Sequence record: OP292222.1
Reading direction: 5' to 3' (one strand)
DNA: 64,000 nucleotides
Source: Escherichia phage Esco_phi_B-01
Shown here: positions 986 to 55,239 of the stretch, piece after piece
How positions within the stretch are numbered: position 1 is the stretch's first letter
How the letters are laid out: every line of letters begins with the position of its first letter
Notes under the pieces: model-generated
What the model was told of the DNA's origin: nothing
Databases searched by the model: none
Seen by the model: the letters and a program-made list of their open reading frames with translations, nothing else
Translations under genes and position numbers: made by a program

Positions 986-1014
986 GTTTACATCTCCAGT
1001 AGAAATGATACTAT
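986..1014 (+). promoter_or_regulatory. early promoter, PeSL-like cassette (-35 GTTTAC, 17-bp spacer, -10 TACTAT) embedded in inverted repeat ctccagtag/ctactggag
   Basis: sequence motif; member of repeated family with core ATGATACTATAGAC(C/A)TATCAACTA. Confidence 0.6.
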
Positions 1015-1040
1015 AGACATATCAACTACTGGAGGTTATC

Positions 1041-1565
1041 ATGAACGCTAAAGATATTTTTTCACTGATTAATTTTAACAATGGTAATTTCAAATCTGAA
1101 AAACAAAGCAAGTTCTTTAACGACGTTGCTTGTGGTAATGAGATTACCGTATCTGGAGGAGAGATTTACAAAAGCCGTTGGAACTGGATTGCTATCATCG
1201 ATTCAGTTGGTATTGTAGAGCTCTATAAAAACACCAACAAAAAACGTACTCTTCACTGGAGTCGTGAAACCAACCAAGCTTATCAAGCTGAGCGTAATAA
1301 ACGTTTAATGCCTACCGAATCTGACCTGGCAAACGTTAAATCAGATATCGCTTATTTTGATAATCTGATTGCCGAACAACAAGCGGTTATTGATAAGTTT
1401 GACGAAATCAAAGCTTGTAAAGAGATTCCTGAATTCATGCGGGAATCAGTAAACGAACAATACGCCCTCACTTCAGGTCGTATCGAGCAGTACAAATCAC
1501 AACGAGCTGAACGCCAAGCTCTGCTTCAGAAATTTGAAGAGCGTTTAAAGACGGTTCTCGCATAA
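1041..1565 (+). CDS. hypothetical protein (174 aa) with C-terminal coiled-coil-like tail
   Basis: ORF directly downstream of PeSL promoter and SD ggagg. Confidence 0.6.
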   Translation: MNAKDIFSLINFNNGNFKSEKQSKFFNDVACGNEITVSGGEIYKSRWNWIAIIDSVGIVELYKNTNKKRTLHWSRETNQAYQAERNKRLMPTESDLANVKSDIAYFDNLIAEQQAVIDKFDEIKACKEIPEFMRESVNEQYALTSGRIEQYKSQRAERQALLQKFEERLKTVLA

Positions 1566-1628
1566 ACGCTTTATACCAAGGATGGTATAATGGTTCTAGG
1601 TTCTTAATTACTTACTGAGGAAATTATT

Positions 1629-2474
1629 ATGTCACAAGCAATTAATCAAATTCGTTCTGAAGTTAAAAAAGTTGTTAAATTTGGTCGTATTCCGAGTTCT
1701 AAAGAAGTGGTTGAAAAGGTCCTATATATGATGTGGGACAAGTTCAATGTTTGTACTGTTAAAGATGACTTCACTAAAATCTTTGACAAGACTAAAGGTT
1801 CGTTTACGTTAGAAGACCGAGTCATGAAAACTCTTCGTAAAACGGGTATGTTGTCTCGTGCTAATGCCAAAATTATTCTTAAAAATTATAACAAAGGCTA
1901 CGACCTTTATGGTCGTTTAATCCCGGCGATGACATTTGATGAAGTTGTTAAAGACCTTAATACTAATCAACGTCGTCTACTGGCCCTTGGTGCTCGCCTT
2001 GCAAAAGGTCAAGATAAACAAATGACCTTTAAGACTAACGGTTCAGGTGATTGGATTATCTTTAATATTGTTAATCATCCAAGAAATGAAAACGAGTATA
2101 CTATTTCCCATTACAGTGGGTGTCAATACGACAACTGGAAGTTCCATCTGCGCTTGGCCCTGTCTGAATTAGAACAACACGGTGTTCTTAGTTTTGGTGA
2201 TGCTGAAACTGGAGTAGGCCAACGTATTAAACTTTATAAAATTAAAGACCTGGCTGAAGAGCATTCAGAACAAGCTCCTAAAATGGAACCTGTACCAGTG
2301 CGCAGCAATGAGAAACATCAAGCCCAAATCGAGTATTTTAGCAATTTGCTTACTTGCTTGAATGTTACAATCCAACAACAAGATGATGAGATTTTCCGAC
2401 TCTCCGGTCTGAATGCCAAAGCTAAGGCTGAACGACAAAAATATATCGATATCTTAAATCTTCTTAAGGATTAA
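1629..2474 (+). CDS. hypothetical protein (281 aa); C-terminal segment resembles that of the 1041..1565 product
   Basis: ORF with canonical T4-type RBS ctGAGGAAAttattATG. Confidence 0.6.
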   Translation: MSQAINQIRSEVKKVVKFGRIPSSKEVVEKVLYMMWDKFNVCTVKDDFTKIFDKTKGSFTLEDRVMKTLRKTGMLSRANAKIILKNYNKGYDLYGRLIPAMTFDEVVKDLNTNQRRLLALGARLAKGQDKQMTFKTNGSGDWIIFNIVNHPRNENEYTISHYSGCQYDNWKFHLRLALSELEQHGVLSFGDAETGVGQRIKLYKIKDLAEEHSEQAPKMEPVPVRSNEKHQAQIEYFSNLLTCLNVTIQQQDDEIFRLSGLNAKAKAERQKYIDILNLLKD

Positions 2475-2476
2475 TT

Positions 2477-2677
2477 ATGGAAATCGCAGGTTTTATTCTT
2501 CTGTACCTTGCATTAGGATTCATTACTGTTCTGATTGGCCGCAAACATATGGAAATTAGCTCAGGTAGCGAAGCAGTATTCGCTACCTTTATTTGGCCGG
2601 TGCTTGCTTTATTTGGAATAGTTTCTATTGTGACTTGGCCTTTCGCTAAATTCTATGAAAAATTATTTGGACTTTAA
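2477..2677 (+). CDS. small hydrophobic membrane protein (66 aa)
   Basis: ORF; two predicted hydrophobic helices. Confidence 0.5.
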   Translation: MEIAGFILLYLALGFITVLIGRKHMEISSGSEAVFATFIWPVLALFGIVSIVTWPFAKFYEKLFGL

Positions 2678-2678
2678 T

Positions 2679-3548
2679 ATGAACATTAAAACACGTAAAG
2701 AATACTCTATATACGACCATGACACGACTCGTCGTATCGCTATCGATCGGCTGGCCGACTTTGGTCATATTTGTAATGGTAATTATACTTATGGTGTAGG
2801 CCGTAAAGGGACTTATATTAGTTCTTTGAATGATTATTGCCGTAGCCCAGCTCATTTATTTGGTGCAACACTACGAGCTAATATTAAAGACCTCTTGGCT
2901 ACTGCAGGACGTATTTCTACGGTTCCTGTTAATATAAAGAATATTAATTTTACGGCTCGTAACCTAGTCATTAATATTCTGCCTGATGGTATTCAAGTTC
3001 GTTTCCGTCCTACTTCAAAAGGTAATAAGGCTCTTCGTGAAGCATTCGAAACCTTATTCAGAGAAGCAATGACTCGTATTAAGGCCGTAGAATCATATAA
3101 AGTTACAACCGATGAATATGCTGATTGTTCTGGACGGGCTGATGCAGTGTATTTTAATGTTAAACTAACTCGTGAATATCTTTTGTCTTATGCCCCTTAT
3201 CAACCCCAACAAAAGGACCCACAAATGGAACGTCGTATCTCTGCAGTATCATGTGACAGCGTAGGCCAGTATGCAGCCTATGACAAATTCAAAACCACAG
3301 CTGTGCCTAGTCCATTCAATTCAGAACCGTATCATTGGAAAATTAGACCTGATAATTCTTTGGTTGTTACTAACCCTACGATGAAACCTATCGAGAAGTA
3401 TCATGAGGACCACCTCCAGGAATCAATCCACCGTTTAAACGGTCAGATCGAAGATGAGAAAAAGAGTATTCAAGACGTATTGATTCGCATCAAGAATATG
3501 GAAATCCAGCGTGACAAGCTTCGCGCGGCAGTATTAGCTCTAAAATAA
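2679..3548 (+). CDS. hypothetical protein (approx 289 aa)
   Basis: ORF; start chosen at first ATG after upstream stop (track start 2655 overlaps previous gene). Confidence 0.5.
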   Translation: MNIKTRKEYSIYDHDTTRRIAIDRLADFGHICNGNYTYGVGRKGTYISSLNDYCRSPAHLFGATLRANIKDLLATAGRISTVPVNIKNINFTARNLVINILPDGIQVRFRPTSKGNKALREAFETLFREAMTRIKAVESYKVTTDEYADCSGRADAVYFNVKLTREYLLSYAPYQPQQKDPQMERRISAVSCDSVGQYAAYDKFKTTAVPSPFNSEPYHWKIRPDNSLVVTNPTMKPIEKYHEDHLQESIHRLNGQIEDEKKSIQDVLIRIKNMEIQRDKLRAAVLALK

Positions 3549-3549
3549 T

Positions 3550-3579
3550 GTTTACATCCAAGGACGGATGGAGTATAAT
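3550..3579 (+). promoter_or_regulatory. early promoter (GTTTAC ... GAGTATAAT)
   Basis: -35/-10 motifs with 18-bp spacer. Confidence 0.55.
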
Positions 3580-3607
3580 CCTTTTATCAACTACTGAGGA
3601 GAATATC

Positions 3608-4618
3608 ATGACTCGTACTGAATACATCAATGCCTTTACTAAGTATATCACTGACAATACCCCTCCATTAACCCCATATATGGTAATAGTTTCTAATATC
3701 AATAAATGGGTAGACCAAATTGATGATGCATTATCGCGCTGTTTCAAAGCTGAAATAGAAAAGATTGCAGGGCGTTTGTTTATTCCTGATATCGTAGATA
3801 CATTTAAAGGTTCTCGACTGCTTTCTCGACTGGTCAATAAGGACATCCTTTCTGAGTTCGGTAAAGAGAAATATCCGGGTTCTAACCATGTTGTTAGCTA
3901 CAAATGGTTTGGTGATACCATAAAAGATTATGTCAAAATTAAAGGTATGGACCCTAGTAGTTTATTTCCGCAACGTTGGGTTAGCGAATTCAAGGCTAAC
4001 TCTGCATTAATTCTCAAAGCGGCCTCTAAAACTATAGTTTCCGGTGATTGTCGTACTATTCACCCGATGGCTAATTGCATGATTAAAACAAATAGTTATA
4101 AAGGAAAAGCTATTATTTCTGTTATTTGGTCGCCTAATAGGAAACCTAAAGATGATGCGGAAGTTGTAAAGTATCAAGATATTGCTTACGATACCTTGAA
4201 TACTATCGAACAAGCCTTAGCTTTGATGGATACAGTAGAGAAATATGAGACCCAAGAAGTTAAACACCACTTAGGCTGGAAAGGATATGAAGTTTTAGTA
4301 ACAGTTCGCGAAATCAAATGGCCTGTTCCAAAAACTGACGCTGAAATTTACCAAGAAAAATGTGAGGAAATTGTGAATACTGATAAAGAGCCTGCTACAT
4401 TAGAAGACTTGATTAACGACTTGAACAGCCCTATCATGGCCCATACACCAATTACTAAATCCAAGTTACCGGAAATCGTTGCCTTAGAAAAAGCGTATAA
4501 AGATGCCCTTGCTATCAACAAAAAACTGACCGGACAATATACCGCTGCCAAGAAACTTTGGGAAGAGTCTACCAATCGTTTAGACCGTCTTGAACAGGCT
4601 CTGGAGCTGTTGAAATGA
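3608..4618 (+). CDS. hypothetical protein (336 aa)
   Basis: ORF; start at ATG preceded by ctGAGGAGaatatc; track start 3548 lies inside promoter. Confidence 0.6.
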   Translation: MTRTEYINAFTKYITDNTPPLTPYMVIVSNINKWVDQIDDALSRCFKAEIEKIAGRLFIPDIVDTFKGSRLLSRLVNKDILSEFGKEKYPGSNHVVSYKWFGDTIKDYVKIKGMDPSSLFPQRWVSEFKANSALILKAASKTIVSGDCRTIHPMANCMIKTNSYKGKAIISVIWSPNRKPKDDAEVVKYQDIAYDTLNTIEQALALMDTVEKYETQEVKHHLGWKGYEVLVTVREIKWPVPKTDAEIYQEKCEEIVNTDKEPATLEDLINDLNSPIMAHTPITKSKLPEIVALEKAYKDALAINKKLTGQYTAAKKLWEESTNRLDRLEQALELLK

Positions 4619-5149: not shown

Positions 5150-5150
5150 A

Positions 5151-5876: not shown

Positions 5877-6165
5877 GCCATGGTATGTCGCTCGGTGGGA
5901 AACTACCGAGCCAGAGGAACCAGTTTACAACGATTCCGAAATAGATTATAATGAACCTTCAAACAATGATTTAATCGATATGGAGTTTGGATATGAGTAC
6001 CAAAATTGAAGTTGGCCGTCATAAAGGCCGTCTGATTGAACATTCTCTTTACGAGTTATCGGATTCGGGTTCTTTACCTGACCTAGAGTCCGATTTGATT
6101 AAAGCTGCAGCCGATTATATTCATTGGCTTGAAGCTCAACTCCGCTTTTCTGATGAGGCCTTCTG

Positions 6166-8073: not shown

Positions 8074-8102
8074 GTTTACTTCCTCTCCTCACGTGTTATA
8101 GT
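8074..8102 (+). promoter_or_regulatory. early promoter, PeSL-like (GTTTAC ... TATAGT) within inverted repeat ctcctcacgtg/cacatgaggag
   Basis: motif. Confidence 0.6.
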
Positions 8103-8131
8103 CTATCCTATCAACACATGAGGAGAACATT

Positions 8132-8308
8132 ATGACTATCCAAGATAAAGAAATTAAAGTCAACCAGTATTATTCAATCAACGGCAAAGCTGTTCTAGTA
8201 ACTGAAATATCTAGCCTGGACGTGTGGTATACCATAATCGACCTTAATATTAAAATGATTTGTGACCGTGGTGTATTTTGTTCGATAGCTAAGGAAATTA
8301 AATTATGA
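8132..8308 (+). CDS. hypothetical protein (58 aa)
   Basis: ORF after PeSL promoter with SD gaggag. Confidence 0.45.
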   Translation: MTIQDKEIKVNQYYSINGKAVLVTEISSLDVWYTIIDLNIKMICDRGVFCSIAKEIKL

Positions 8309-8994: not shown

Positions 8995-9195
8995 ATGAAT
9001 CCTGAATCTAAATTATCACAACGAATTGCTGAAGCCCGTCGTCAGTTCTTTGAAAATATGGTAGCTCAAGGTATTGATGACGAAGTTTTTCTAAACTGGT
9101 TTTGGAATAACAAATATTCAAAATGCGCAGGAGCAATATTAATATCAGCCGCCGCGATGTATGAAGGTTGGAAAGGTGCATTAGCACAAAAATAG
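8995..9195 (+). CDS. hypothetical protein (66 aa)
   Basis: ORF. Confidence 0.45.
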   Translation: MNPESKLSQRIAEARRQFFENMVAQGIDDEVFLNWFWNNKYSKCAGAILISAAAMYEGWKGALAQK

Positions 9196-9223
9196 TTTAC
9201 AAACTCTTGGGACCAGAGTATAA
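9195..9223 (+). promoter_or_regulatory. early promoter (GTTTAC, 17 bp, TATAAT)
   Basis: motif. Confidence 0.6.
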
Positions 9224-9263
9224 TGGTCCTACGGATTATAAATTTTAAACTGAGGAAATTATT

Positions 9264-9593
9264 ATGTCACAAGCTATTAAAAACGTACTGAACTCTTTCG
9301 CTTTCGATAAAGTTAATGAACTGATGAAAACTGGCTTTGTAACTCCTCAGGTTCTTGACCAATGGGTTGCTGAACTGTTACCAATTATGCATTCTAAAGA
9401 CCAAAAAATCGGTAAGAATGGTATTCGTGAAATCCTGGTTCAATATATTCTTGATGAGTTTGATGTTGCTGCCTTCGGTGTTGAATCTAAAGCTTGGCAC
9501 CCAGGTGAAATCACAGACAAAACCATCCGTCGTATGAAGAACCAACGTAAGAAAAAATTCGTTGACCTGAAAATTGTTAAGGCTGCGAAATGA
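9264..9593 (+). CDS. hypothetical protein (109 aa)
   Basis: ORF with RBS ctGAGGAAAttattATG. Confidence 0.6.
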   Translation: MSQAIKNVLNSFAFDKVNELMKTGFVTPQVLDQWVAELLPIMHSKDQKIGKNGIREILVQYILDEFDVAAFGVESKAWHPGEITDKTIRRMKNQRKKKFVDLKIVKAAK

Positions 9594-21516: not shown

Positions 21517-21546
21517 GTTTACATACCACATGGAACGTGGTATTAT
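21517..21546 (+). promoter_or_regulatory. early promoter, PeSL-like (GTTTAC ... TATTAT)
   Basis: motif. Confidence 0.55.
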
Positions 21547-21576
21547 CCTTCCTATCAACTACATGAGGAAATTATA

Positions 21577-21813
21577 ATGGAAGCTTTAATCGTTAGTGCT
21601 GGTGTTTTAGGATTCGGTTCTCTGGCTATTATGTTCATTGGTTACTTTTTACCATGGATTCTAGCTCTTTTGCGAGGCACCCGTAGCAATGTCGGAATCT
21701 TCTTCCTTAATCTCTTGTTAGGATGGACGATGATTGGTTGGGTAGTGGCTTTAATCTGGGCCATCGTCGCTGAACGTAAATCAAACGCACAAATCATTAT
21801 CGTTAAACAATGA
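21577..21813 (+). CDS. imm: superinfection immunity membrane protein Imm
   Basis: two hydrophobic helices; position downstream of 43 as in T4. Confidence 0.8.
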   Translation: MEALIVSAGVLGFGSLAIMFIGYFLPWILALLRGTRSNVGIFFLNLLLGWTMIGWVVALIWAIVAERKSNAQIIIVKQ

Positions 21814-28387: not shown

Positions 28388-29811
28388 AAACTATTTTGGC
28401 TCAACTGCTAGGCAATAGTGATTATTTCACTAAGGTCTGGCCTTATATGAATGATTCTTATTTTGACCAGGGTCCGGCAAAGACCCTTTTCAAAGAAATC
28501 AAAAAACATGTCAATGAATATAATGCGGTGCCTTCTAAAAATGCTTTGAGTATTGCATTAGATAACAGCACCCTTTCAGAAGTTGAACATCAAGGAGCTA
28601 AAGAGCTTTTAAATTCTCTGAATGCAGGCCCTGAAGACCAAGAATGGTTGGTTAAAGAGACAGAGAAATATGTTCAGAAGGCAGCGATGTATAATGCCAC
28701 TTCAAAAATTATTGAAATTCAAACTAATGCCGACCTTCCGGTTGAGCAACAAAATAGAAAACTCCCAGGTATTGGTGCTATTCCAGATATCATGCGTGAT
28801 GCATTATCGATTTGTTTCGATTCTGAATTAGGCCATGACTGGATGGATGACTATGAAGAACGTTTTAAAAGTTATTCTGATAAAGCACGTAAGGTTCCAT
28901 TCCGTCTTAATATTCTGAATAAGATTACTAAGGGTGGCGCTGAGTTTGGTACTGAAAACGTATTGTTAGCAGGAACAAACGTAGGTAAGTCTCTGGGTCT
29001 GTGTTCATTGGCTGCTGATTACCTTCAATCCGGTTACGATGTTCTTTATATCTCCATGGAGATGGCAGAGGAAGTATGTGCTAAGCGTATCGATGCTAAC
29101 CTTCTAGATGTATCACTGGATGATATTGATGATGGTCACGTCTCATGGCCTGAATATAAAGCCAAGATGGATAAGTGGCGTTCAACTGCTACTTTAGGTC
29201 GTTTAAAGATTAAACAGTATCCTACTGGTGGTGCTAATGCCGATACATTCCGTGCATTATTAAACGAATACAAGCTCAAACAAAACTTTGTCCCACAGGT
29301 CGTTATCGTCGACTACTTGGCCATCTGTGCTTCATCCCGTACGAAAGTTTTCTCTGAAAACAGTTATGGATTGATTAAGATGGTTGCCGAAGAACTACGT
29401 GGACTTGCAGTAGAGAAGAAATTATTGTTGTGGACTGCAGCCCAGACTACTCGTGGCGCGAACGTTGCAGCCGAAATCGATATGGCTGATATCGCTGAAT
29501 CCTTTGGTATTGCACATACTGCAGACTTCATGTTAGGTGTGGTCGAGACAGAAGAGTTTGCTCAGATGGGTATGCAGATGGTTAAGCAGCTTAAATCCCG
29601 TTATGGTGATAAGAGCTACTACAACAAATTTAAGATTGGTGTTAAGAAAGGAAACCAGCGTTGGTATGAAGTTGAAGACGATTCTAACCCAGGCCCAGTG
29701 AACACCGTTCGTGAGGCTACAGGTGAAATGAATCGCCAAGCAGAGGTCAATCGTCAGTCGCGTGTTAATAGAAGCGATTTAGACGATTTAGCAGCATCTA
29801 TCAAATTTTAA
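28381..29811 (+). CDS. 41: replicative DNA helicase gp41 (DnaB-like)
   Basis: Walker A GTNVGKSLGL; similarity recalled to T4 gp41; GTG start (28372/28375/28381 all possible). Confidence 0.92.
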   Translation: MVETILAQLLGNSDYFTKVWPYMNDSYFDQGPAKTLFKEIKKHVNEYNAVPSKNALSIALDNSTLSEVEHQGAKELLNSLNAGPEDQEWLVKETEKYVQKAAMYNATSKIIEIQTNADLPVEQQNRKLPGIGAIPDIMRDALSICFDSELGHDWMDDYEERFKSYSDKARKVPFRLNILNKITKGGAEFGTENVLLAGTNVGKSLGLCSLAADYLQSGYDVLYISMEMAEEVCAKRIDANLLDVSLDDIDDGHVSWPEYKAKMDKWRSTATLGRLKIKQYPTGGANADTFRALLNEYKLKQNFVPQVVIVDYLAICASSRTKVFSENSYGLIKMVAEELRGLAVEKKLLLWTAAQTTRGANVAAEIDMADIAESFGIAHTADFMLGVVETEEFAQMGMQMVKQLKSRYGDKSYYNKFKIGVKKGNQRWYEVEDDSNPGPVNTVREATGEMNRQAEVNRQSRVNRSDLDDLAASIKF

Positions 29812-29832
29812 GGAGCTTCGGCTCCTTTTTTG
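29808..29832 (+). terminator. rho-independent terminator (ggagc-ttcg-gctcc + T7)
   Basis: stem-loop + T-run. Confidence 0.75.
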
Positions 29833-29840
29833 TTTTAAGG

Positions 29841-29869
29841 GTTTACTTCTCCTGTAGGCATGATACTAT
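29841..29869 (+). promoter_or_regulatory. early promoter, PeSL-like (GTTTAC, 17 bp, TACTAT)
   Basis: motif; repeat family. Confidence 0.6.
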
Positions 29870-29895
29870 AGACCTGTCAACTAATGGAGAACAAA

Positions 29896-30213
29896 ATGAA
29901 AACCATCGACTGTAAAGCGGAATATAAAGTGTATTACCATGGAAGTTGTAGTGTTGCTAATATTGGTAATATGCTTTGTCCTCCTGAGGAAACAGGAGTT
30001 CTGTCTGAAACTGGTCGTAAGAAAAACCTGAACCGTGTGTTCTTTACTGAAGATATTGGTTTGGCTAAGATTTATGCTGGCCGAGCTGCTCGTTCGGTGG
30101 GAGGAGAACCTCGTCTTTATCGTGTAATTGCTCCGGTAGATGTGGTTTGTTTAAATGATACCAAAGGCGCTACGGTTTATCACGCTGAATGGGCCTTCTG
30201 TGAGGAAATCTAA
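29896..30213 (+). CDS. hypothetical protein (105 aa)
   Basis: ORF after PeSL; start at second ATG with SD atggag. Confidence 0.5.
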   Translation: MKTIDCKAEYKVYYHGSCSVANIGNMLCPPEETGVLSETGRKKNLNRVFFTEDIGLAKIYAGRAARSVGGEPRLYRVIAPVDVVCLNDTKGATVYHAEWAFCEEI

Positions 30214-30799: not shown

Positions 30800-30829
30800 G
30801 TTTACAACGGTCTATGGTAGTGATACTAT
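30800..30829 (+). promoter_or_regulatory. early promoter, PeSL-like
   Basis: motif; repeat family. Confidence 0.6.
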
Positions 30830-30857
30830 AGACCTATCAACTAATGAGGAGTTAAAA

Positions 30858-31151
30858 ATGAAAAAGTTATTAATCGCAGCAATCCTTACAGTAGCATCAT
30901 GTGGTACAGCTCCAGTTACGGCTGGATTGGATAAAGACCTTTGTGAATGGTCTATGACCGCAGACCAAGAATCAGTTGAACATCAGATTTACGCTGATAT
31001 CATGAATATCACTAAACGTGACCGTCCTGATATGGTTAAAGAAGTATCTGACCAATTGGCTTCTAGCGGTGTTATGCAGTATAACTATGTTCTGTACTGT
31101 GATGCTAATTTCGATAACAAAAATATTGTTAAAGAGGTGATAGGTGAATAA
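30858..31151 (+). CDS. predicted lipoprotein (lipobox VASC)
   Basis: N-terminal MKKLLIAAILTVASCG. Confidence 0.55.
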   Translation: MKKLLIAAILTVASCGTAPVTAGLDKDLCEWSMTADQESVEHQIYADIMNITKRDRPDMVKEVSDQLASSGVMQYNYVLYCDANFDNKNIVKEVIGE

Positions 31152-34114: not shown

Positions 34115-34139
34115 AAGGAACCTTCGGGTTCCTTTTTTC
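34115..34139 (+). terminator. rho-independent terminator (aggaacc-ttcg-ggttcct + T6)
   Basis: stem-loop + T-run. Confidence 0.75.
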
Positions 34140-34204
34140 GTTTTAGTAGTTTACTTTACGAGTAGGCCATGTTAAGATAGATGTATCTTATAGAGGAGAA
34201 CACT

Positions 34205-34414
34205 ATGTTAAATCGTTGGATTAAACCAAATAAAACTTTGGATGAAATTATCGCTAATCACGTATTGAAAAAGTACTTCTATACTCCTTGGTATACCGAA
34301 GTTATTGTCCATTCATTTATGATGCATGAAGACGGTTCTATCGAATTTAACGCCGAAATCCGTCACGAGACTGATGATATTGATAAAGTTGAATTTAAAC
34401 GAGGTTTCCTATGA
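34205..34414 (+). CDS. hypothetical protein (69 aa)
   Basis: ORF; start at ATG after SD gaggag. Confidence 0.5.
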   Translation: MLNRWIKPNKTLDEIIANHVLKKYFYTPWYTEVIVHSFMMHEDGSIEFNAEIRHETDDIDKVEFKRGFL

Positions 34415-35788: not shown

Positions 35789-36021
35789 TGAATTGGCTAA
35801 CTAATATACCTACATCGGCGTTGGATATCGACCGTAAACAAGCTCGTAAGGAAACCGAGCAAAAAAATATTCAGGCAAAAGCTCCTAAGATTGAAGTTGA
35901 GAAGCCAGAAACAAAAAGCTCTTATGAATCAAAAAGCTCCTATACTTCATATACCCAATCCTCATTAGGCATGGCTGCCGACATTGCGGTGTTTGGCGTC
36001 CCACTTGGTGTGTTTAAGTAG
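35788..36021 (+). CDS. hypothetical protein (77 aa), C-terminal hydrophobic
   Basis: ORF. Confidence 0.45.
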   Translation: MNWLTNIPTSALDIDRKQARKETEQKNIQAKAPKIEVEKPETKSSYESKSSYTSYTQSSLGMAADIAVFGVPLGVFK

Positions 36022-36049
36022 TTTACATCTCCTCCCTTCATGTTATAAT
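36021..36049 (+). promoter_or_regulatory. early promoter (GTTTAC, 17 bp, TATAAT)
   Basis: motif. Confidence 0.6.
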
Positions 36050-36073
36050 GACCTCTAAATCACTGGAGGTCAT

Positions 36074-36643
36074 ATGAACATCGAACAAAAATGTCTTTAT
36101 CAAGACCGAATCAATTCCAAATTTTCAAAATCTGAACAAGCGTTGTTAGAGAAATGTCTGGATGCCAAAAAAGACCCTAACTTACATTATGACCTAGACA
36201 AACTAGTTCGTAAACATGTTACTTCGGCCGTTCCGGTAGAGCTTTATCGTGGGATTACCACCAGAGAACTTGAGCAATTAGAGCTCCTTTCAGTAGGGTG
36301 CCACTGGTCTCCTGGTCGGGTTACTTCTTTTAGTACACAATACTCTCAGGCTTGCCAGTTCGCAGGGTCATGGGAATATGGAACCAAAACCATTTTAAGT
36401 CTCAGGAATGCACCCTTCATTTTTGACTACTACAATCATGCTATCGACCTTGTTCTTGCAGGGAATGCGGACGAACTTGAAATAGATGAAACCCGTATTG
36501 ACCTCTATGATATGGTCGAAACCGAATGTGAGTTCATGGTCTCTAGTCTATCACGGTTCGAGATTGTGGAAATCGAAACTATCAAAAGGGACCCATACGA
36601 CATCGAGTACAAAATAATTCATTTAAAAATGTTGGATTTTTAG
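36074..36643 (+). CDS. modB: ADP-ribosyltransferase, ModB-like
   Basis: R-S-ExE triad: LYRG, SFS, ECE; position upstream of dda as in T4 (which paralog is modA vs modB is assigned by order only). Confidence 0.7.
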   Translation: MNIEQKCLYQDRINSKFSKSEQALLEKCLDAKKDPNLHYDLDKLVRKHVTSAVPVELYRGITTRELEQLELLSVGCHWSPGRVTSFSTQYSQACQFAGSWEYGTKTILSLRNAPFIFDYYNHAIDLVLAGNADELEIDETRIDLYDMVETECEFMVSSLSRFEIVEIETIKRDPYDIEYKIIHLKMLDF

Positions 36644-36672
36644 TTTACAGGCAAGGATGCTTATGTTACTAT
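36643..36672 (+). promoter_or_regulatory. early promoter (GTTTAC ... TACTAT)
   Basis: motif. Confidence 0.55.
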
Positions 36673-36697
36673 CTTTCTATCAACTGAGGAGAATAAT

Positions 36698-37312
36698 ATG
36701 TTATATCCAAGCCATAAATTAGCAGAATTTATCAACAATGCCAAATGCGATGATTTCCGTGAGAATACTCAGATAGAAATTGATGAGGTGTATTCTGATT
36801 TAGAACAGAGCACGCTCTGGCAGTGTATGGAAAATAAACCTGATTCTATCCAGGAAACTCTGAACAAAATTATTCGTAAGAACCTGACTTCTGTAGTGCC
36901 TGATAAGCTCTATCGCGGTATATCTAAAAAGACCCTGAAGTATCTAGAGTCCACAATGTGTGTGGGTGCGGTAATTGAATTCGACCGCGTGATGAGCTTC
37001 TCTAAAGACTTCAACGTAGCAAGGAATTTCGCATCTTATAACTTCTACGGCACATTTAATATCTTTTGTATTAATGATGCGCCATTTGTGTACAATTATC
37101 AGGAAGAAATCTTTAAAATGTTATGTGCTGCGCCCCCTGAAGAGTTCCCAGGCGCATTTCCTGAATCTACCCGTGTAGCAAACTTACAATTAATTAATGA
37201 TGAAGATGAGATGATGTTCCCTGCGGGAACTACGCTGCGCGTAGACTCTATTGAGAGAAATCCTAAATGGAATAATTACACCATTTGGAATCTTTCCGTT
37301 CTTTCTTACTGA
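36698..37312 (+). CDS. modA: ADP-ribosyltransferase, ModA-like
   Basis: R-S-ExE triad: LYRG, SFS, EDE; paralog of upstream gene. Confidence 0.7.
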   Translation: MLYPSHKLAEFINNAKCDDFRENTQIEIDEVYSDLEQSTLWQCMENKPDSIQETLNKIIRKNLTSVVPDKLYRGISKKTLKYLESTMCVGAVIEFDRVMSFSKDFNVARNFASYNFYGTFNIFCINDAPFVYNYQEEIFKMLCAAPPEEFPGAFPESTRVANLQLINDEDEMMFPAGTTLRVDSIERNPKWNNYTIWNLSVLSY

Positions 37313-37381: not shown

Positions 37382-37410
37382 GTTTACTTTATTAAGCAAC
37401 ATGATACTAT
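37382..37410 (+). promoter_or_regulatory. early promoter, PeSL-like
   Basis: motif; repeat family. Confidence 0.6.
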
Positions 37411-37450
37411 AGACCTATCAACTAATCGTCCGTAAGATGAGAAAAATATC

Positions 37451-38200
37451 ATGCCTACTATTAAAACTAGCGATGAATTTGAGTTAAAGGTTTACAACCG
37501 CCGCAAACACACCAAAGCTTCTGCTTATAAACGTGGTAAGGACTTCAATCTGTCTAGTAAGTATGTTCGTAGACTTCTCGAACAAAAAGTGTGCGCTTAT
37601 TCAGGCGAGTACTTTGATGAAAATTCAGTTAATGATAAGATTTCATTTGAACGTTTTAACAACGATATCGGCTATATTGAGGGTAATGTAATCCCAGTTA
37701 AAGTTAAGTATAACAGCTTACGTGCCGATTTGTCCCTTGATGAACTGAAACGTGCCCAGACTCGTTTAGCAGTTCGTATTTCAGGTAGTTCTAAAATGCC
37801 TAATAGTTTTAAAGTTACCCCTGATAATTATTATAAAATCCGTAAAATCGTTAAAAATATAAAAGATACCCAAAGAGGTCTTAAAAAACGTGAAAAACGT
37901 CTTAAAGACCTTATTAAATCGGGAGCTACTGATAAGACTCCTTCTGTTATCGCGGTTAAGGCCCGTATCCACGGTTCTAACGCTTCAATCGGTACTATGG
38001 AAAAAGGTCTTAAATCTTTAATTGGTGGGCCTGACTGGCGCGTCAAGTTTAAATTGTCTGAAGCAGAAACGCGTTACGATATGTATGATAAAATTATTCA
38101 AGGTCTGGAGCGTTTAGAACACCTTTCTTTTATTGACAAATTGAAGTTGAAAAAAGGTCTTCCGCTGAATGCTTCAATTTTTTCACTGATTAGAGGTTAA
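37451..38200 (+). CDS. hypothetical basic protein (249 aa); Srd-like by position upstream of dda
   Basis: synteny only. Confidence 0.5.
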   Translation: MPTIKTSDEFELKVYNRRKHTKASAYKRGKDFNLSSKYVRRLLEQKVCAYSGEYFDENSVNDKISFERFNNDIGYIEGNVIPVKVKYNSLRADLSLDELKRAQTRLAVRISGSSKMPNSFKVTPDNYYKIRKIVKNIKDTQRGLKKREKRLKDLIKSGATDKTPSVIAVKARIHGSNASIGTMEKGLKSLIGGPDWRVKFKLSEAETRYDMYDKIIQGLERLEHLSFIDKLKLKKGLPLNASIFSLIRG

Positions 38201-40751: not shown

Positions 40752-40780
40752 GTTTACTTCTCCTCATGACATGATATTAT
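40752..40780 (+). promoter_or_regulatory. early promoter, PeSL-like, in inverted repeat ctcctcatg/catgaggag
   Basis: motif. Confidence 0.6.
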
Positions 40781-40807
40781 CTACCCTATCAACATGAGGA
40801 GAACAAA

Positions 40808-41317
40808 ATGAAACTTTATCGAGTTGAGTCATCGTTCAGTATCTTAGATGATGGAAACGCTATCACAATACGACGAGACCTCTGTACTCAAATGACCCCG
40901 TATAGAAGTACAACAGACTCATGGAGTGAAGGCTGGTTATTAGAAGTAGGTTTAGACAGGCCTATTTTTAGACACCATCATAGCATTAATAAAAATATCC
41001 CACTACCAAGTCAAGATAAGCTGTTGGTAGAAAATTCTAATAAAGCCATTAGAACTAAGTGGAAAAGGCCTGATTATGAAGGCTCTGATGATTATATTCC
41101 AGGTTGGTTTGTTAACCTCTACCATTTTGCTTTTGCCAGTGAGTATGATATGATGCGCTGGTTCACTCGTGAAGAGCGTGAAGAATTATCTTCTAAAGGA
41201 TTCTATCTTGCTGTTTACGAAATACCAGAAGATGAGGTTGTCATCGGTGGCCGCCAAGTAATGTTCCGCAAATCCCATGCCGAACTTGTAGATTTTATTG
41301 AATTGAGAACAATATGA
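40808..41317 (+). CDS. hypothetical protein (169 aa)
   Basis: ORF. Confidence 0.55.
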   Translation: MKLYRVESSFSILDDGNAITIRRDLCTQMTPYRSTTDSWSEGWLLEVGLDRPIFRHHHSINKNIPLPSQDKLLVENSNKAIRTKWKRPDYEGSDDYIPGWFVNLYHFAFASEYDMMRWFTREEREELSSKGFYLAVYEIPEDEVVIGGRQVMFRKSHAELVDFIELRTI

Positions 41318-41864: not shown

Positions 41865-41893
41865 GTTTACTTTATCGAGGGCCATGTTATAAT
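41865..41893 (+). promoter_or_regulatory. early promoter (GTTTAC, 17 bp, TATAAT)
   Basis: motif. Confidence 0.6.
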
Positions 41894-41935
41894 GGCTCTC
41901 ATGGATTATAAACCTTTAACCAAGAGAGAAAAATT

Positions 41936-42502
41936 ATGATTACTATTTCCGATATCGGCAGTATCGTTCGTGTATCCAAAAAGTCTCGTTCAAAAGCTGC
42001 GGGCAGTTTAGTTGAAGTTGTTAGCATCCAACTTAAAGAAGGTGTCAGTGAAGAAAATTATGAAGTAAAAGTTCGTATCATTCCTAAAAATCGCCAGACT
42101 GAAACCCAATTCGGTTATGTGCGCGCTAAATTCTTGGAATCGACTGAATTTACCGGATACATCGCTCCCGTAGTTGAAGAAGTTGAATCCCATGATGGGT
42201 ATGTATGTGAAAGCAATGATATCCGTGGCGTAGTAGCTCAAGACGTTGAAACTATTGACCAATCTCATGTCGGCGTTGATTTCAAATGGAAATTAGGTCG
42301 AGGAGTGTGTTTTAATACTCCTAAACCGTTCAAATATGTTGACGAACCTTTTGGTACTTATGAAACTACTAGCATGTCCGGTTACATCACAGACCAGTGG
42401 GTTGAAGAAGGCGTTAAGCTTTATAACATCGTGTTCCTTGGAACCTTTAAAGTGGTTCCTGAAAGCTTTATTGTCGAGTATGCTAATATTCATCGTGCAT
42501 AA
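41936..42502 (+). CDS. hypothetical protein (188 aa), paralog of 41314..41862
   Basis: shared C-terminal block. Confidence 0.6.
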   Translation: MITISDIGSIVRVSKKSRSKAAGSLVEVVSIQLKEGVSEENYEVKVRIIPKNRQTETQFGYVRAKFLESTEFTGYIAPVVEEVESHDGYVCESNDIRGVVAQDVETIDQSHVGVDFKWKLGRGVCFNTPKPFKYVDEPFGTYETTSMSGYITDQWVEEGVKLYNIVFLGTFKVVPESFIVEYANIHRA

Positions 42503-42662
42503 AGTTTAAAAAAGTAGTGTACAACAAGATAGGGTAGTGATAAGATTACCCTATCAAAACAAATGAGTGATGGAGAATAAAAATGTTTGCACCTTATATT
42601 ATGATTGCAGTTATCGTTATCTGTCTGTATCTTTTAATTAAAGCTTGTTAAGGAGATTCAAA

Positions 42663-45827: not shown

Positions 45828-45848
45828 AAGGGCCGCAAGGCCCTTTTC
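45828..45848 (+). terminator. rho-independent terminator (gggcc-gcaa-ggccc + T4)
   Basis: stem-loop + T-run. Confidence 0.65.
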
Positions 45849-45899
45849 GGGGTTTACAACAGATTAAAAGTGTGATACGATTCTCTAAGAGGTGAGAAT

Positions 45900-46223
45900 A
45901 TGATTATGCAAGATAATAGTATAGTGAACACTGATAACTTGGCTTTGTCTTTTATGGAGACCGCAATTCGCAATTGTAAAGACGAAGGAGTCGTGATTAC
46001 AAGTGGCAAGGGACTAGAATATCTTAAGGCTGTAAAATCTATTGCCTTAAAGATTAAAGATAACCAGGCGCTCTCTCCTGTTGTCCAGGAAAAGGTTCTG
46101 GAGATATTGTATCGCCACAGAGAGCACAAAAGTACAATGGGTTCTATGAGAAGAATTCTGGCTGAACTGGGTTCTACCAGAGAATATGTTCAACATGAGG
46201 TAGTTAAAAATGACAAACTTTAA
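45900..46223 (+). CDS. hypothetical protein (107 aa)
   Basis: ORF upstream of rIIA. Confidence 0.5.
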   Translation: MIMQDNSIVNTDNLALSFMETAIRNCKDEGVVITSGKGLEYLKAVKSIALKIKDNQALSPVVQEKVLEILYRHREHKSTMGSMRRILAELGSTREYVQHEVVKNDKL

Positions 46224-50666: not shown

Positions 50667-50696
50667 GTTTACATACGCCATGGATGGTGTTACTAT
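50667..50696 (+). promoter_or_regulatory. early promoter, PeSL-like
   Basis: motif. Confidence 0.55.
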
Positions 50697-50727
50697 CTTC
50701 CTATCAACTACATGAGAGGAAAACAAA

Positions 50728-50988
50728 ATGGATATCAAATTATATTACGCTAAACACAAAGTTACGGGTAAAGTTGTTGCCGCAATGTATGATGCATCAG
50801 GTGAAGATGTTATTACGGAATTATCCCTTTCTAATTGTAGATTTCTTCGTCCTTTGATAGCGTCAAAAAAAGATTTACAAAAACTTATCGACGGTAAATT
50901 AGATAATGTCGATGGTATAGATATCCATTATGAACTCCGCCATGCACTGAATGATGGGTTTATGGAAATAAAAGAGATAGTATTATGA
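50728..50988 (+). CDS. hypothetical protein (86 aa)
   Basis: ORF with SD gagagga. Confidence 0.5.
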   Translation: MDIKLYYAKHKVTGKVVAAMYDASGEDVITELSLSNCRFLRPLIASKKDLQKLIDGKLDNVDGIDIHYELRHALNDGFMEIKEIVL

Positions 50989-51203
50989 GTAGCAAAACCT
51001 GGTGCTTTATTTGGATGACTTGTATTCCAATTATTTGTATATGTTTTAGTTTAATTATAATTTTATAATGAGGATTTATGTATATACATAAATTTGGTAA
51101 AGATAAGTTCGGCAACTGGTTAGTTATGCGCGATTACATTTTTGAGTGCCAGGCCTTAAACGCCCAAAGAATTTACGGTGGTATAATAGAATATTACGAA
51201 AAA

Positions 51204-51233
51204 CGATAAATCAGTATACATCTCCATTAGACA
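51204..51233 (+). promoter_or_regulatory. PeSL-like cassette with degenerate -35 (GTATAC) in perfect 12-bp inverted repeat catctccattag/ctaatggagatg
   Basis: motif; repeat family. Confidence 0.5.
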
Positions 51234-51268
51234 TGATACTATAGACCTATCAACTAATGGAGATGATT

Positions 51269-51379
51269 ATGAAAAACTTACTTAAAGCAATTTGGAACAT
51301 GTTTGTGTTATTGGTTGTATTGAGCATTTTCCCAATAGTTTTTATGATTGACCACGTACGTGTATTCTTTAACTTCTGA
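51269..51379 (+). CDS. small membrane peptide (36 aa)
   Basis: hydrophobic ORF after PeSL. Confidence 0.35.
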   Translation: MKNLLKAIWNMFVLLVVLSIFPIVFMIDHVRVFFNF

Positions 51380-51389
51380 GGAAAATATT

Positions 51390-51536
51390 ATGGGTAATCG
51401 AATTTATAAAGTAAAGCTGCACGGTAAAGTGATTACTACCGTTAGCTTTAATTTTTATATCAGCGCTGACTGCGCCCGCGATATCCTCATCGAGGAAGGA
51501 TATAGCGAATACATCCAAATTGAAGAAGTTCTTTAA
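51390..51536 (+). CDS. hypothetical small protein (48 aa)
   Basis: RBS ctGAGGAAAatattATG. Confidence 0.45.
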   Translation: MGNRIYKVKLHGKVITTVSFNFYISADCARDILIEEGYSEYIQIEEVL

Positions 51537-51552
51537 TTCTGAGGAAAATATT

Positions 51553-51777: not shown

Positions 51778-51791
51778 TTGAGGAAATTATC

Positions 51792-52136
51792 ATGTCTAAA
51801 GTATTTTTTGGTAATGCTAAGATTATGTTCTTTGAGCAACTCAGTCTTAAAGAGGCATTGGCAGCCTTCAATCAAGAACTGGTTACTGGGTTAGATTCAA
51901 AAACTATGGCAAGCGCGGATTTCGTTTTCGTTCAAGACCCGGATACAGGGTTTTATCGATTCATCAAATTCCGTATGAGCATGGACCCTGACTATCGTAG
52001 TGCTTACTATGTGAGTTACGAAAATGTTATCAAAGAATTACGTGATACCTATGGACGTGCTTTGAACCCACTGAATAAGGTATATAATGCGTCCTTTTAT
52101 ACGAGCGGATTTATTTTAGAACAGCTACAAAAATAG
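51792..52136 (+). CDS. hypothetical protein (114 aa)
   Basis: RBS tGAGGAAAttatcATG. Confidence 0.55.
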   Translation: MSKVFFGNAKIMFFEQLSLKEALAAFNQELVTGLDSKTMASADFVFVQDPDTGFYRFIKFRMSMDPDYRSAYYVSYENVIKELRDTYGRALNPLNKVYNASFYTSGFILEQLQK

Positions 52137-52164
52137 TTTACAACCTCGAGAATCATGTTATAAT
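52136..52164 (+). promoter_or_regulatory. early promoter (GTTTAC, 17 bp, TATAAT)
   Basis: motif. Confidence 0.6.
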
Positions 52165-52213
52165 GGTTCTCGTTGACTGGATAACAAAACATTAATCTAC
52201 TGAGGAAATTGAT

Positions 52214-52663
52214 ATGAATACTTATATGACTCGCGGTAACGTTCTGTCTGCTGGTGCTACTACTGTTGCTTATGTTAAGAATGGCGAATACCAAAATGGT
52301 AAGCCTTCTAAAGAAATCTCAGCTCAGCCAGGCTTCTACTTCTTTGTTAAAGGTGAAGCAGATTCTCGTGTCGTAGCCGCTCGCTTTTATGTCGGTAACC
52401 AACGTTCAGCTCAAGGTCTTGATGGTATTGTGGCTAACATCCGTAAGAAACGTTCTCAATCAGCTCGCACTATGGCAGTGAATGGTGTGGTGTATGAAGT
52501 TCTTTATGTGCCAGCTTCTAAAATGAAACCTCTGACTACAGGCTTTGGTAAAGGTCAAATTGCAATGGTTTTCACTCGCAATCATAGTTCAGACCTTCAG
52601 ACACTGGAAGAAATGAACCGTATGTTGGCCGATAACTTCAAATTCGTTCTGCAGGCTTACTAA
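52214..52663 (+). CDS. ndd: nucleoid disruption protein Ndd
   Basis: strong similarity recalled to T4 Ndd ([43 protein letters not shown]). Confidence 0.9.
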
Positions 52664-52750
52664 TGAGTAATTTCCATAACGAACATGTGATGCAATGGCA
52701 CCGTCATAATCTGAAATTAACCGGTGTCTTCGGACGCCCTTGAGGAAAAT

Positions 52751-52900
52751 ATGAATATTTTACAAGGTTTTGCTGCGGGTATTTGGACTTATCTAGGTAT
52801 TTGGACTATTACGACGGGTGAAACTTCGGTCATTTCTCAGGCCATTCCACAATTCATATTGGCATTTGTTCTGATTCTACAGGCCTTTACCAAAAAATGA
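52751..52900 (+). CDS. small membrane protein (49 aa), copy 1 of duplicated module
   Basis: hydrophobic ORF; RBS tGAGGAAAatATG preceded by UUCG hairpin. Confidence 0.45.
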   Translation: MNILQGFAAGIWTYLGIWTITTGETSVISQAIPQFILAFVLILQAFTKK

Positions 52901-53045
52901 TTAAGAAATCTTGGGTTACTCGGTAGCCCTTTCTTCTTTATTGGTAACACTGTATTACGGAGTAATTCCCATAACGAACATGTGATGCAGTTCTATCGTA
53001 ACAATCTTAAAACTAAAGGCGTCTTCGGACGCTAATGAGGAAAAT

Positions 53046-53340: not shown

Positions 53341-53344
53341 AATT

Positions 53345-54724: not shown

Positions 54725-54825
54725 GCCTTGGAGTCGAGTTCTTGTTACTCTGTATCTTTGCTGTTATCCTAGGCCTGGCAACAGGCTTAGCTATAGGTTT
54801 AATAGCGGCTCACTTTAAAAAGTAA
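54721..54825 (+). CDS. small membrane peptide (34 aa)
   Basis: ATGA overlap with gene 52 stop; hydrophobic. Confidence 0.35.
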   Translation: MSLGVEFLLLCIFAVILGLATGLAIGLIAAHFKK

Positions 54826-54848
54826 GGAACCTTCGGGTTCCTTTTTTG
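54824..54848 (+). terminator. rho-independent terminator (aggaacc-ttcg-ggttcct + T6)
   Basis: stem-loop + T-run. Confidence 0.75.
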
Positions 54849-54866
54849 GGTTTAGTGCAAAAAAGT

Positions 54867-54895
54867 GTTTACATCTGCTTTAAACATGATACTAT
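54867..54895 (+). promoter_or_regulatory. early promoter, PeSL-like
   Basis: motif; repeat family. Confidence 0.6.
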
Positions 54896-54943
54896 AGACC
54901 TATCAAATAAATGAACTGAAACAAACAACCCGGAGATACAAAA

Positions 54944-55171
54944 ATGAAATTTAAAATCGAAAACGAAATCGTTAAAGCTAAAAATGCTCTGACTGCTAAC
55001 AAACTGGTTGTAGATGGTATTGAATATGATATCTGTGGAGTTCGTGAAGAAAAACCCGGTGTTCTGACTTTCTTCACAATGATTTTTAAATTTAAAGGTG
55101 TCACAGAATTCAAACAGTTTGATTTTGCCCCTGAAGACGAAATCGAAGTTCGTAATCTGAACATTAAGTAA
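54944..55171 (+). CDS. hypothetical protein (75 aa)
   Basis: ORF after PeSL. Confidence 0.5.
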   Translation: MKFKIENEIVKAKNALTANKLVVDGIEYDICGVREEKPGVLTFFTMIFKFKGVTEFKQFDFAPEDEIEVRNLNIK

Positions 55172-55210
55172 GTACTTTATTAGAGCTCTTGAAAAAGAGC
55201 TCAAAATAAA

Positions 55211-55239
55211 GTTTACTTCTGCTTTAAACATGATACTAT
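55211..55239 (+). promoter_or_regulatory. early promoter, PeSL-like
   Basis: motif; near-identical to 54867 copy. Confidence 0.6.

Follow-up and report, generated by a model that had tools for sequence, protein, structure and literature searches.

The DNA considered here, called the window throughout, is a stretch of 64,000 nucleotides from Escherichia phage Esco_phi_B-01 (sequence record OP292222.1), and our subject is a family of 22 early-promoter cassettes within it, in a minority of which the promoter appears to lie inside a hairpin that could mask the ribosome-binding site (RBS) of the gene being served. From 29 to 38 kb the window shares 97.5% identity, full length and reversed relative to the JS98 record, with Escherichia phage JS98 (Dhakavirus, Straboviridae), and on this sequence evidence it belongs to a JS98-like, T4-type coliphage of the genus Dhakavirus. 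With the annotation of JS98 and NC-G transferred, the early and middle genes occupy the + strand from 1 to ~57.7 kb in the order nrdC.10 ... 55, 47, 46, 45, 44, 43, uvsX, 41, 61, modA/B, srd, dda and then motB, 39, rIIA, rIIB, ndd, 52, motA, asiA, after which the holin and tail-fibre genes follow on the - strand. The genes served by the cassettes include the T4 immediate-early set motA, asiA, modA, modB, srd, motB, motB.2, ndd, imm, sp and mrh.2. Since the stop codon of the upstream gene usually lies 0–4 nt ahead of the -35 hexamer, a cassette makes up nearly the entire intergenic region.

Each cassette appears to be laid out in the same order, namely an A-rich upstream region, GTTTAC, a 17–18-bp spacer usually ending in TGn, the -10 hexamer, a (C)TATCAAC start region, a Shine–Dalgarno sequence (SD) and ATG. 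Across the whole window, the pattern GTTTAC-N17/18-TAnnnT, with at most two mismatches to TATAAT allowed, matches 21 times on the + strand and never on the - strand, against a mean of 0.41 and a maximum of 3 in dinucleotide shuffles; the initial annotation, which had counted at least 15 such sites, was therefore right and even undercounted them. A generic TTGACA/TATAAT promoter scan fails to tell the cassettes from background (53 found vs 52 expected; 66 vs 51), so that the phage-specific GTTTAC pattern is needed, and a scan of the whole window at the Rfam gathering thresholds returned no known RNA family. The 22 cassettes were curated by demanding an SD and an ATG downstream, the ATG lying 12–43 nt past the predicted transcription start (+1, placed 7 nt past the -10); TGn precedes the -10 in 19 of them, TATCAA stands at the predicted +1 in 13, and their upstream regions are A-rich. 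By sequence they are early, host sigma-70-type promoters of a JS98-like T4-type phage, with predicted activity.

Within this family, a 24-bp core, ATGATACTATAGACMTATCAACTA, occurs in seven copies (at most one mismatch; expected 0 in the whole window), all on the + strand, with starts at 1005, 29860, 30820, 37401, 51233, 54886 and 55230 and with -35 hexamers starting at 986, 29841, 30800, 37382, 51214, 54867 and 55211. All seven had been noticed before, one of them with its -35 at 51204, 10 bp away from the actual hexamer at 51214, which reads GTATAC instead of GTTTAC. T4 early promoters (Pe) have been described as “uber” UP/-35/TGn/-10 promoters (Hinton 2010, PMC2988021), and the cassettes resemble them in the GTTTAC -35, the TGn, the -10, the A-rich upstream region and the extra conserved positions outside the hexamers; T4 motA, ndd.4 and ndd.6 share TGnTACTAT...CTATCAACTA with the window core. 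Unlike T4, the Dhakaviruses repeat one consensus variant, ATGATACTATAGACCTATCAA, exactly 6–10 times per genome, and the 21-nt core, with its 6–10 copies per Dhakavirus genome, is always confined to one strand. The 24-bp core is thus best read, from its sequence, as the Dhakavirus form of the extended T4 early-promoter consensus.

Two classes of predicted hairpin are built upon these promoters: in type A the spacer pairs with the SD, and in type B it pairs with the -10 and the discriminator. The spacer would be the single stretch left unconstrained by the promoter, and approximately 40% of the cassettes seem to use it for the 5′ arm of a hairpin. When the spacer alone was shuffled and the segment refolded from the -35 to just beyond the ATG (the spacer-shuffle test), 8 of the 22 cassettes reached p<0.05 (Fisher-combined p=5e-10), comprising type A at 986, 8074, 40752 and 51214, the marginal 29841, and type B at 30800, 42517 and 52136; weaker type B stems occur at 9195, 41865 and 57382, and a convincing stem is wanting in about six cassettes. 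Computed duplex energies between the -35 plus spacer and the leader are better with a cassette's own leader than with the leaders of others (permutation p=0.0065), the only outliers being 986, 8074, 40752 and 51214 at -18 to -19 kcal/mol, with 29841 weaker at -12. The anti-SD motifs CTCC or CCTC are present in 7 of the 22 spacers, compared with a background of 4.4% (p=3e-5).

All 5′ arms lie upstream of the predicted +1, and such an arm would be transcribed only by RNA polymerase coming from an upstream promoter; the hairpin should therefore form only in read-through, polycistronic RNA. In front of nrdC.8, 55.6, modB, motB.2 and the ndd.4-like open reading frame (ORF), the 3′ arm would be the SD itself, so that ribosomes should translate that gene poorly from read-through RNA. 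Transcripts that begin at the embedded promoter, with a predicted 5′ end of AUCAAC..., would keep the SD free, and protein synthesis from these five genes would be bound to the brief period in which early promoters fire. Folding of the two kinds of leader, a check proposed together with the initial annotation, predicts a contrast in SD pairing for the five cassettes (986, 8074, 36021, 40752 and 51214): the probability that the SD is unpaired is 0.00–0.01 in read-through RNA vs 0.45–0.62 in promoter-started RNA, and the fold energies are -15.1 to -21.6 kcal/mol (z -2.9 to -6.1) vs 0 to -2.3 kcal/mol. We consider it probable, if by a modest measure, that the cassettes form an early-promoter family of the promoter(early) stem-loop (PeSL) type, a subset of which puts the promoter inside an RBS-masking hairpin, a scheme known from T4 that would here be applied to early promoters. 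It is physically plausible that the RBS is masked in read-through RNA and exposed when transcription starts at the promoter; for five cassettes, and for these only, folding, anti-SD enrichment and conservation in T4 argue for it, so that the mechanism as originally suggested would hold for those five and does not extend to the family as a whole. The individual cassettes are listed in Table 1.

Table 1. The 22 early-promoter cassettes of the window with their predicted hairpins (z and p from spacer shuffling or folding as given; P, predicted probability that the SD is unpaired, read-through vs promoter-started RNA; dG in kcal/mol)
Gene downstream	Coordinates	Strand	Promoter and hairpin	Arms (5′ / 3′)	Statistics
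nrdC.8	986..1043	+	core copy, type A; -35 at 986, -10 TACTAT	CTCCAGTAG 994-1002 / CTACTGGAG 1026-1034	spacer-shuffle z=-6.2, p=0.002; dG -18.2, z=-3.6; P 0.01 vs 0.45
nrdC.4	3550..3610	+	GTTTAC-18-TATAAT; weak stem within spacer		spacer-shuffle z=-1.6, p=0.08
pin-like ORF	5923..5995	+	GTTTAC-18-TATAAT; no spacer-specific structure		z=0.07
gene 55.6	8074..8134	+	type A, long hairpin	8083-8101 / 8108-8125	dG -21.6, z=-5.7; spacer-shuffle z=-5.8; P 0.00 vs 0.56
gene 55.2	9195..9266	+	type B, GGGACC/GGTCC stem round -10	9209-9214 / 9225-9230	
imm	21517..21579	+	spacer stem extending to -10		z=-1.6, p=0.06
orf34	29810..29898	+	terminator hairpin (29810-29827, then T-run); core copy, -35 at 29841; degenerate type A stem, 2 mismatches	29849-57 / 29881-89	z=-2.0, p=0.046
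sp (spackle)	30800..30860	+	core copy, type B; 11-bp stem, 3′ arm is -10 and discriminator, SD untouched	30809-19 / 30824-34	z=-4.4
mrh.2	34115..34207	+	terminator hairpin (34115-34134)		
modB	36021..36076	+	SD masked; 5′ arm between -10 and +1	36048-55 / 36066-73	dG -15.1, z=-2.9; P 0.00 vs 0.55
modA	36643..36700	+	no significant structure		
srd	37382..37453	+	core copy without hairpin		z=-1.7, p=0.07
motB.2	40752..40810	+	type A	40760-68 / 40793-801	dG -19.4, z=-6.1; spacer-shuffle z=-7.5
motB	41865..41938	+	type B	41877-85 / 41892-900	
22-aa mini-ORF and cef	42517..42585	+	type B	42528-36 / 42547-55	z=-6.2
ORF upstream of rIIA.1	45828..45902	+	GC-rich hairpin (45828-45845)		
orf262-like	50667..50730	+			
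ndd.4-like 36-aa ORF	51214..51271	+	core copy, type A, 12-bp stem	CATCTCCATTAG 51219-51230 / CTAATGGAGATG 51254-51265	dG -19.9, z=-5.5; spacer-shuffle z=-8.4
ndd	52136..52216	+	type B, outer CCTC/GAGG pairing	52147-56 / 52163-72	z=-3.4
75-aa ORF	54824..54946	+	terminator hairpin (54824-54843); core copy, -35 at 54867		
motA	55182..55276	+	stem-loop (55182-55202); core copy, -35 at 55211		
asiA	57382..57463	+	type B, stem AAGAAT/ATTCTT		

A strong stem between spacer and SD is thus found in 4 of the 22 cassettes (986, 8074, 40752 and 51214). Beyond these, 29841 has a weak stem, with two mismatches and poorly kept in relatives, and 36021 (modB) masks its SD with an arm that lies after the -10. 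The “many” cassettes that had been credited with the GGAG of the SD in their 3′ arm therefore come down to 5–6 of 22; the two inverted repeats quoted as examples, those before nrdC.8 and the ndd.4-like ORF, are both exact. Even the seven core copies differ among themselves, with two perfect stems, one imperfect (29841), one of type B off the SD (30800) and three without any (37382, 54867 and 55211). Five cassettes have a hairpin just upstream, terminator-like at 29810, 34115, 45828 and 54824 and a plain stem-loop at 55182, and in these five any hairpin embedded in the promoter is slight or absent (z between -2.0 and +1.0). A T-run follows the upstream hairpins only; after type A and type B stems comes TATCAAC or the SD sequence. 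Hairpins over the -10, or terminators just upstream, would probably insulate, attenuate or stabilise transcripts, as has been proposed for PeSLs. An identical 20-nt terminator hairpin, AAGGAACCTTCGGGTTCCTT, recurs three times in the window, at 34115–34134 (+), 54824–54843 (+) and 63271–63290 (-), and by its sequence constitutes a second small repeat family, distinct from the promoters.

The cassettes were compared with those in Dda ±10 kb from 22 T4-like viral contigs, in the nrdC.8 and motA regions of Dhakaviruses and in three T4 stretches; the 22 T4-like loci were reached by Dda alignment, as single-protein search gave close relatives only. Among 105 distinct cassettes, 42–60% pass the spacer-shuffle test at p<0.05 in four of five T4-like groups, against 5% expected, and 0 of 4 cassettes pass in the fifth; the set extends to 44% Dda identity. 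At several genes the hairpin is kept while its arms differ. The sp cassette pairs GGTCTATGGTA with TACTATAGACC in the window and GGGGTAAT with ATTATCCC in relatives L024-26, and the motB cassette pairs GAGGGCC/GGCTCTC in the window and GGGACC/GGTCCC in T4. The same holds for SD masking: of four T4 orthologues checked, three (motB.2, ndd.4 and modB, not 55.6) mask the SD with other arms. At motB.2, CTCCTCATG/CATGAGGAG in the window corresponds to CCTCGGTTAGTTGTGGT/ACCATAGCTACTGAGG in T4 (z=-5.8); at ndd.4, the 12-bp stem of the window corresponds to a different 15-bp stem over GGAGG in T4 (z=-5.6); and at modB, GACCTC/GAGGTC in the window corresponds to AGCTTC/GAGGCT in T4 in the same arrangement. 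The Dhakavirus and T4 stems of motB.2 are set in registers 2 nt apart relative to the SD, which no single column-wise structure can describe; covariation counting on this alignment was therefore impossible, and the two structures are reported separately. Because the same arrangement is present in T4 itself, at motB.2, ndd.4 and modB, it is directly testable in the best-studied phage system.

The composition of the arms bears on whether the palindromes act as RNA at all. A different reading would place them at the DNA level, as cruciforms, single-stranded DNA hairpins or recombination signals centred on the -10, or would regard them as functionless relics of cassette duplication. The PeSL papers stress recombination and report betaine-sensitive sequencing stops, which show that the DNA can fold (PMC2839356, PMC4122927), and the cassettes at 986, 29841 and 51214 share ~45 bp, and their repeat may thus have been inherited. 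Nevertheless, a strand-symmetric repeat finder counts 34 G·T against 3 A·C pairs in the arms, and 22 against 3 (p=1.6e-4) with one representative per lineage. As a cruciform in duplex DNA would disfavour both mismatches equally, this excess speaks for pairing in sense-strand RNA. The strand-symmetric count, followed by the choice of one representative per lineage, superseded an earlier comparison in which the sense fold was more stable than the antisense fold in 39 vs 7 cassettes, in a set that had been chosen by sense-strand folding and so carried an ascertainment bias. Independent arms at 8074, at 40752 and in the T4 orthologues, a compensated G-C / T-A difference between cassettes 986 and 51214, and the absence of breakpoint enrichment at cassettes further speak against structures in DNA or mere relics, which we regard as very improbable. 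The asymmetry instead points to hairpins under selection as sense RNA, made by transcription through the promoter, and it touches the published PeSL family as well, whose stem-loops would look selected as sense RNA and not as DNA structures.

If RNA hairpins are what is selected, they could still be generic intercistronic elements, that is, terminators, attenuators or barriers to 3′-exonucleases on the upstream RNA, whose arms fall wherever the sequence is free and whose overlap with the SD is incidental. The position of the hairpin differs among orthologues (over the SD, the -10 or the -35), most of the significant hairpins lie off the SD, the internal hairpin is wanting where an upstream terminator is present, and terminator-like activity has been measured for one RB49 stem-loop (Arbiol et al., PMC2839356), all of which such elements would explain. 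What they would leave unexplained is why type A accepts the cost of a 23–27-nt loop in reaching the SD although a short hairpin over the -10 would be enough, why the anti-SD motif is enriched in the spacers, why the SD is masked at motB.2, ndd.4 and modB in both T4 and the window despite differing arms, and why no T-run follows either type A or type B stems. We therefore judge incidental overlap to be unlikely, while giving it more weight than any other alternative to SD masking.

Several observations weigh against SD masking as the purpose of these hairpins. Only 5–6 of the 22 cassettes mask the SD, too few for masking to be the family's general function, and in a 20-nt leader any 3′ arm of 9–12 nt would likely tend to overlap the SD. 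In the most distant group, all eight significant hairpins lie over the -10 (type B only). The nrdC.8 hairpin in relatives L053-55 likewise lies over the -10; 55.6 in L053-54 has instead a GGGG...CCCC-TTT stem with the -35 in its loop, and T4 55.6 lacks a significant stem. With the type of hairpin so variable, what is conserved may be no more than the presence of a hairpin at some place in the gap. Because orthologues are not independent, the pooled statistics exaggerate the number of samples, and insertion/deletion (indel) boundaries are not enriched at the cassettes (see below). Finally, the function is predicted throughout, from the transcription starts through the existence of read-through RNA to the effect on translation. 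Taken with the conservation described above, the general conserved feature is a sense-RNA hairpin fitted into the free positions of the cassette, and SD masking is a recurring special case, stable at certain genes.

Masking need not imply silence on read-through RNA. The SD might stay closed only until the stem is melted by a ribosome translating the upstream gene or cleaved by an RNase (RNase III or E), in which case the gene would still be made from read-through RNA. The upstream stop codon lies 1–4 nt ahead of the -35 at 986, 8074, 40752 and 51214, and the stems are 9–19 bp long, both in keeping with such coupling or processing. The geometry argues otherwise: the 5′ arm begins 9–13 nt past the stop, which should place it level with the leading edge of a terminating ribosome or farther on, so that such a ribosome would melt little of the stem, and translational coupling was judged unlikely on this ground. 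As for processing, we know of no RNase III role in T4 early mRNA, which also counts against it. Together, coupling and processing seem to us quite improbable, if a little less so than DNA-level palindromes, and the reading preferred here remains that the five masked genes would be poorly translated from read-through RNA.

How, then, do the cassettes relate to known systems? PeSLs of T4-type phages have been described in RB49/phi1 (Arbiol et al. 2010, PMC2839356) and in PST/T4 and nt-1/KVP40 (Comeau et al. 2014, PMC4122927), where the stem-loops fall into five positional subclasses, namely upstream of the promoter, over the -35, between the boxes, over the -10 and just past the -10; they were interpreted as terminators or attenuators, and no subclass reaches the SD. 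The window cassettes share with them the composite of an AT-rich region, sigma-70-like -35 and -10, stem-loop, SD and ATG in many copies between early genes, the variable position of the stem-loop (upstream of the promoter, in the spacer, over the -10), the G·T pairs in the stems, and tandem copies flanking small ORFs that are lost or swapped among close relatives, as at 54867/55211. Types B and T of the window fit PeSL subclasses, whereas a stem ending on the SD does not: the subset in question reaches across the -10 and +1 as far as the SD. The window stems differ further in not being polyG/polyC, many of the cassettes precede conserved regulators (motA, asiA, modA/B, srd) and not ORFans, and breakpoints are not enriched at them in our data set. 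The match to PeSLs drawn by the initial annotation thus holds for the composite of promoter, stem-loop, SD and ATG, while the masking of the RBS lies outside the published description.

For the masking itself, the closest likeness is to T4 e, soc, 49 and I-TevI, in which an RBS-sequestering hairpin contains an internal promoter: the long RNA holds the SD and/or AUG in a helix, and a start between the arms yields a translatable leader (Uzan & Miller 2010, PMC3014915). Those internal promoters are late or middle, and they delay the translation of genes lying in early units (PMC3014915). The cassettes at 986, 8074, 36021, 40752 and 51214 resemble them in that the SD is predicted to be paired in the long RNA, and differ in that the internal promoter is early (-35 GTTTAC) and the 5′ arm is provided by its own spacer or discriminator. 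As the embedded promoter is early, the logic would be similar with the timing reversed, translation occurring only while early promoters fire. By analogy, the SD-masking cassettes would work like the e/soc/49/I-TevI scheme without being members of it; they are a variant of two known T4 devices and not a new kind of element. In the literature searched, which did not cover the main T4 genome review, we found no description of an RBS-masking hairpin with an early internal promoter, nor any genome-wide T4 5′-end data set.

More tentatively, and with rather less confidence than we attach to the masking hairpins as such, the spacers of T4-type early promoters may double as anti-SD arms that constitute an “immediate-early-only” translational gate, kept from T4 (motB.2, ndd.4, modB) to the Dhakaviruses, with, for example, the ADP-ribosyltransferase ModB made only from RNA of its own promoter. 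If such a gate exists, the proteins concerned would cease to be made once early promoters shut off, although read-through and middle-mode transcription still cross their genes. It would mirror the late-only gate of genes e, soc and 49, and the shut-off of early protein synthesis, still not fully explained, would gain a post-transcriptional component. A single 60-bp cassette would then comprise both a promoter and a spacer-encoded switch that silences the same gene on transcripts from upstream, a very compact means of limiting a protein to the first minutes of infection.

Similarity among the cassettes sometimes leads them to recombine, and an exchange between two of them would delete, duplicate or swap the small ORF in between. 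The clearest case lies between gene 52 and motA, where the tandem pair 54867 and 55211 stands 344 bp apart. The window and an IME281-like genome have a cassette, the 75-aa ORF and a second cassette; JS98 and relatives L041 and L042 carry a different ORF between the two; and in NC-G, L040 and L043 the ORF is absent and one cassette is left, with the junction inside the repeat. In the relatives lacking the ORF, BLAST segments overlap by 47–77 bp within the repeat, the outcome that recombination between tandem copies 344 bp apart would produce. In L040, the 50667 cassette is duplicated round an extra 240-bp segment. At these two loci, cassette recombination appears clear from the sequences. Other indel boundaries coincide with the -35 of 36021 and with the ATG of 42517, and one falls 8 bp short of the -35 of 51214. 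Exchange may also act over a distance: the JS98 nrdC.8 cassette bears the spacer of the 51214 cassette, with one base pair broken, which suggests conversion between copies far apart. The first 35 nt of the 9195 cassette (gene 55.2), including its GGGACC/GGTCC stem, are identical to the T4 motB early promoter (L016), while the window's own motB cassette differs from that promoter and T4 55.2 has no such promoter, so that the same cassette stands before non-orthologous genes in two genera.

A general role of the cassettes as hotspots finds no statistical support in these events. Over all 86 + strand gene junctions in the regions compared, close relatives show indel boundaries no more often at cassettes than elsewhere (8 of 21 cassette junctions vs 22 of 65 others, odds ratio 1.2, p=0.46), and many indels use other short repeats, such as a 28-bp overlap at 51392–51529 and a duplicated stp-like segment at 52.66–53.05 kb. 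One genome, IMGVR_UViG_2974741249_000001 (155,101 bp; L022, L043, L057), was excluded from this test; it shows many ~100-bp gaps relative to every other Dhakavirus, together with locally duplicated blocks, and the gaps are probably an assembly artefact that makes it unsuited to indel analysis. The initial annotation had taken the cassettes for recombination hotspots and had suggested an alignment of flanking genes across relatives: this yields clean exchange at 54867/55211 and 50667 without enrichment over all junctions. Among the regions that had been marked as plastic, 50.6–55.2 kb is so; 29.8–31.0 kb shows one small event in one genome, and 37.4 kb none. Overall, the recombination results mostly confirm the published picture.

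Some of the small ORFs next to cassettes are themselves variable. A 43-aa ORF (51078–51209) lies on a 135-bp insertion that none of the seven Dhakavirus relatives compared possesses and whose end is 8 bp ahead of the -35 of cassette 51214. A hydrophobic mini-ORF of 22 aa (MFAPYIMIAVIVICLYLLIKAC; 42583–42651) lies on a 78-bp insertion missing in six relatives, which begins at the ATG of cassette 42517, sits exactly between that ATG and cef, and supplies its own SD for cef. The 77-aa ORF at 35789–36021 (MNWLTNIPTSALD...), whose stop codon overlaps the -35 of the modB cassette, is found in the window and JS98 and not in five other Dhakaviruses. Between 52664–52745 and ~52960–53040 stand two tandem stp-like frames (...GVFGR; the peptide activating host PrrC), with 78% identity over 94 bp and with CGG in the second copy in place of the first copy's ATG; they flank a 49-aa ORF (52751–52900) at the position of T4 ac, and indels here differ among relatives.

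Two further observations concern the start regions. Directly after the early -10 of cassettes 9195 and 41865, a late-promoter-like box, GGATTATAAA (cf. T4 TATAAATA), is present at 9231–9245 and 41902–41912, which suggests stacked early and late promoters. For annotation, the cassettes could mark the boundaries of transcription units and guide the choice of start codons: T4 ndd.4 (L058, T4 166636–166764) has an annotated start of ATGGAGG, in which GGAGG is more likely the SD for an in-frame ATG 15 nt downstream, matching the start at 51269 in the window.

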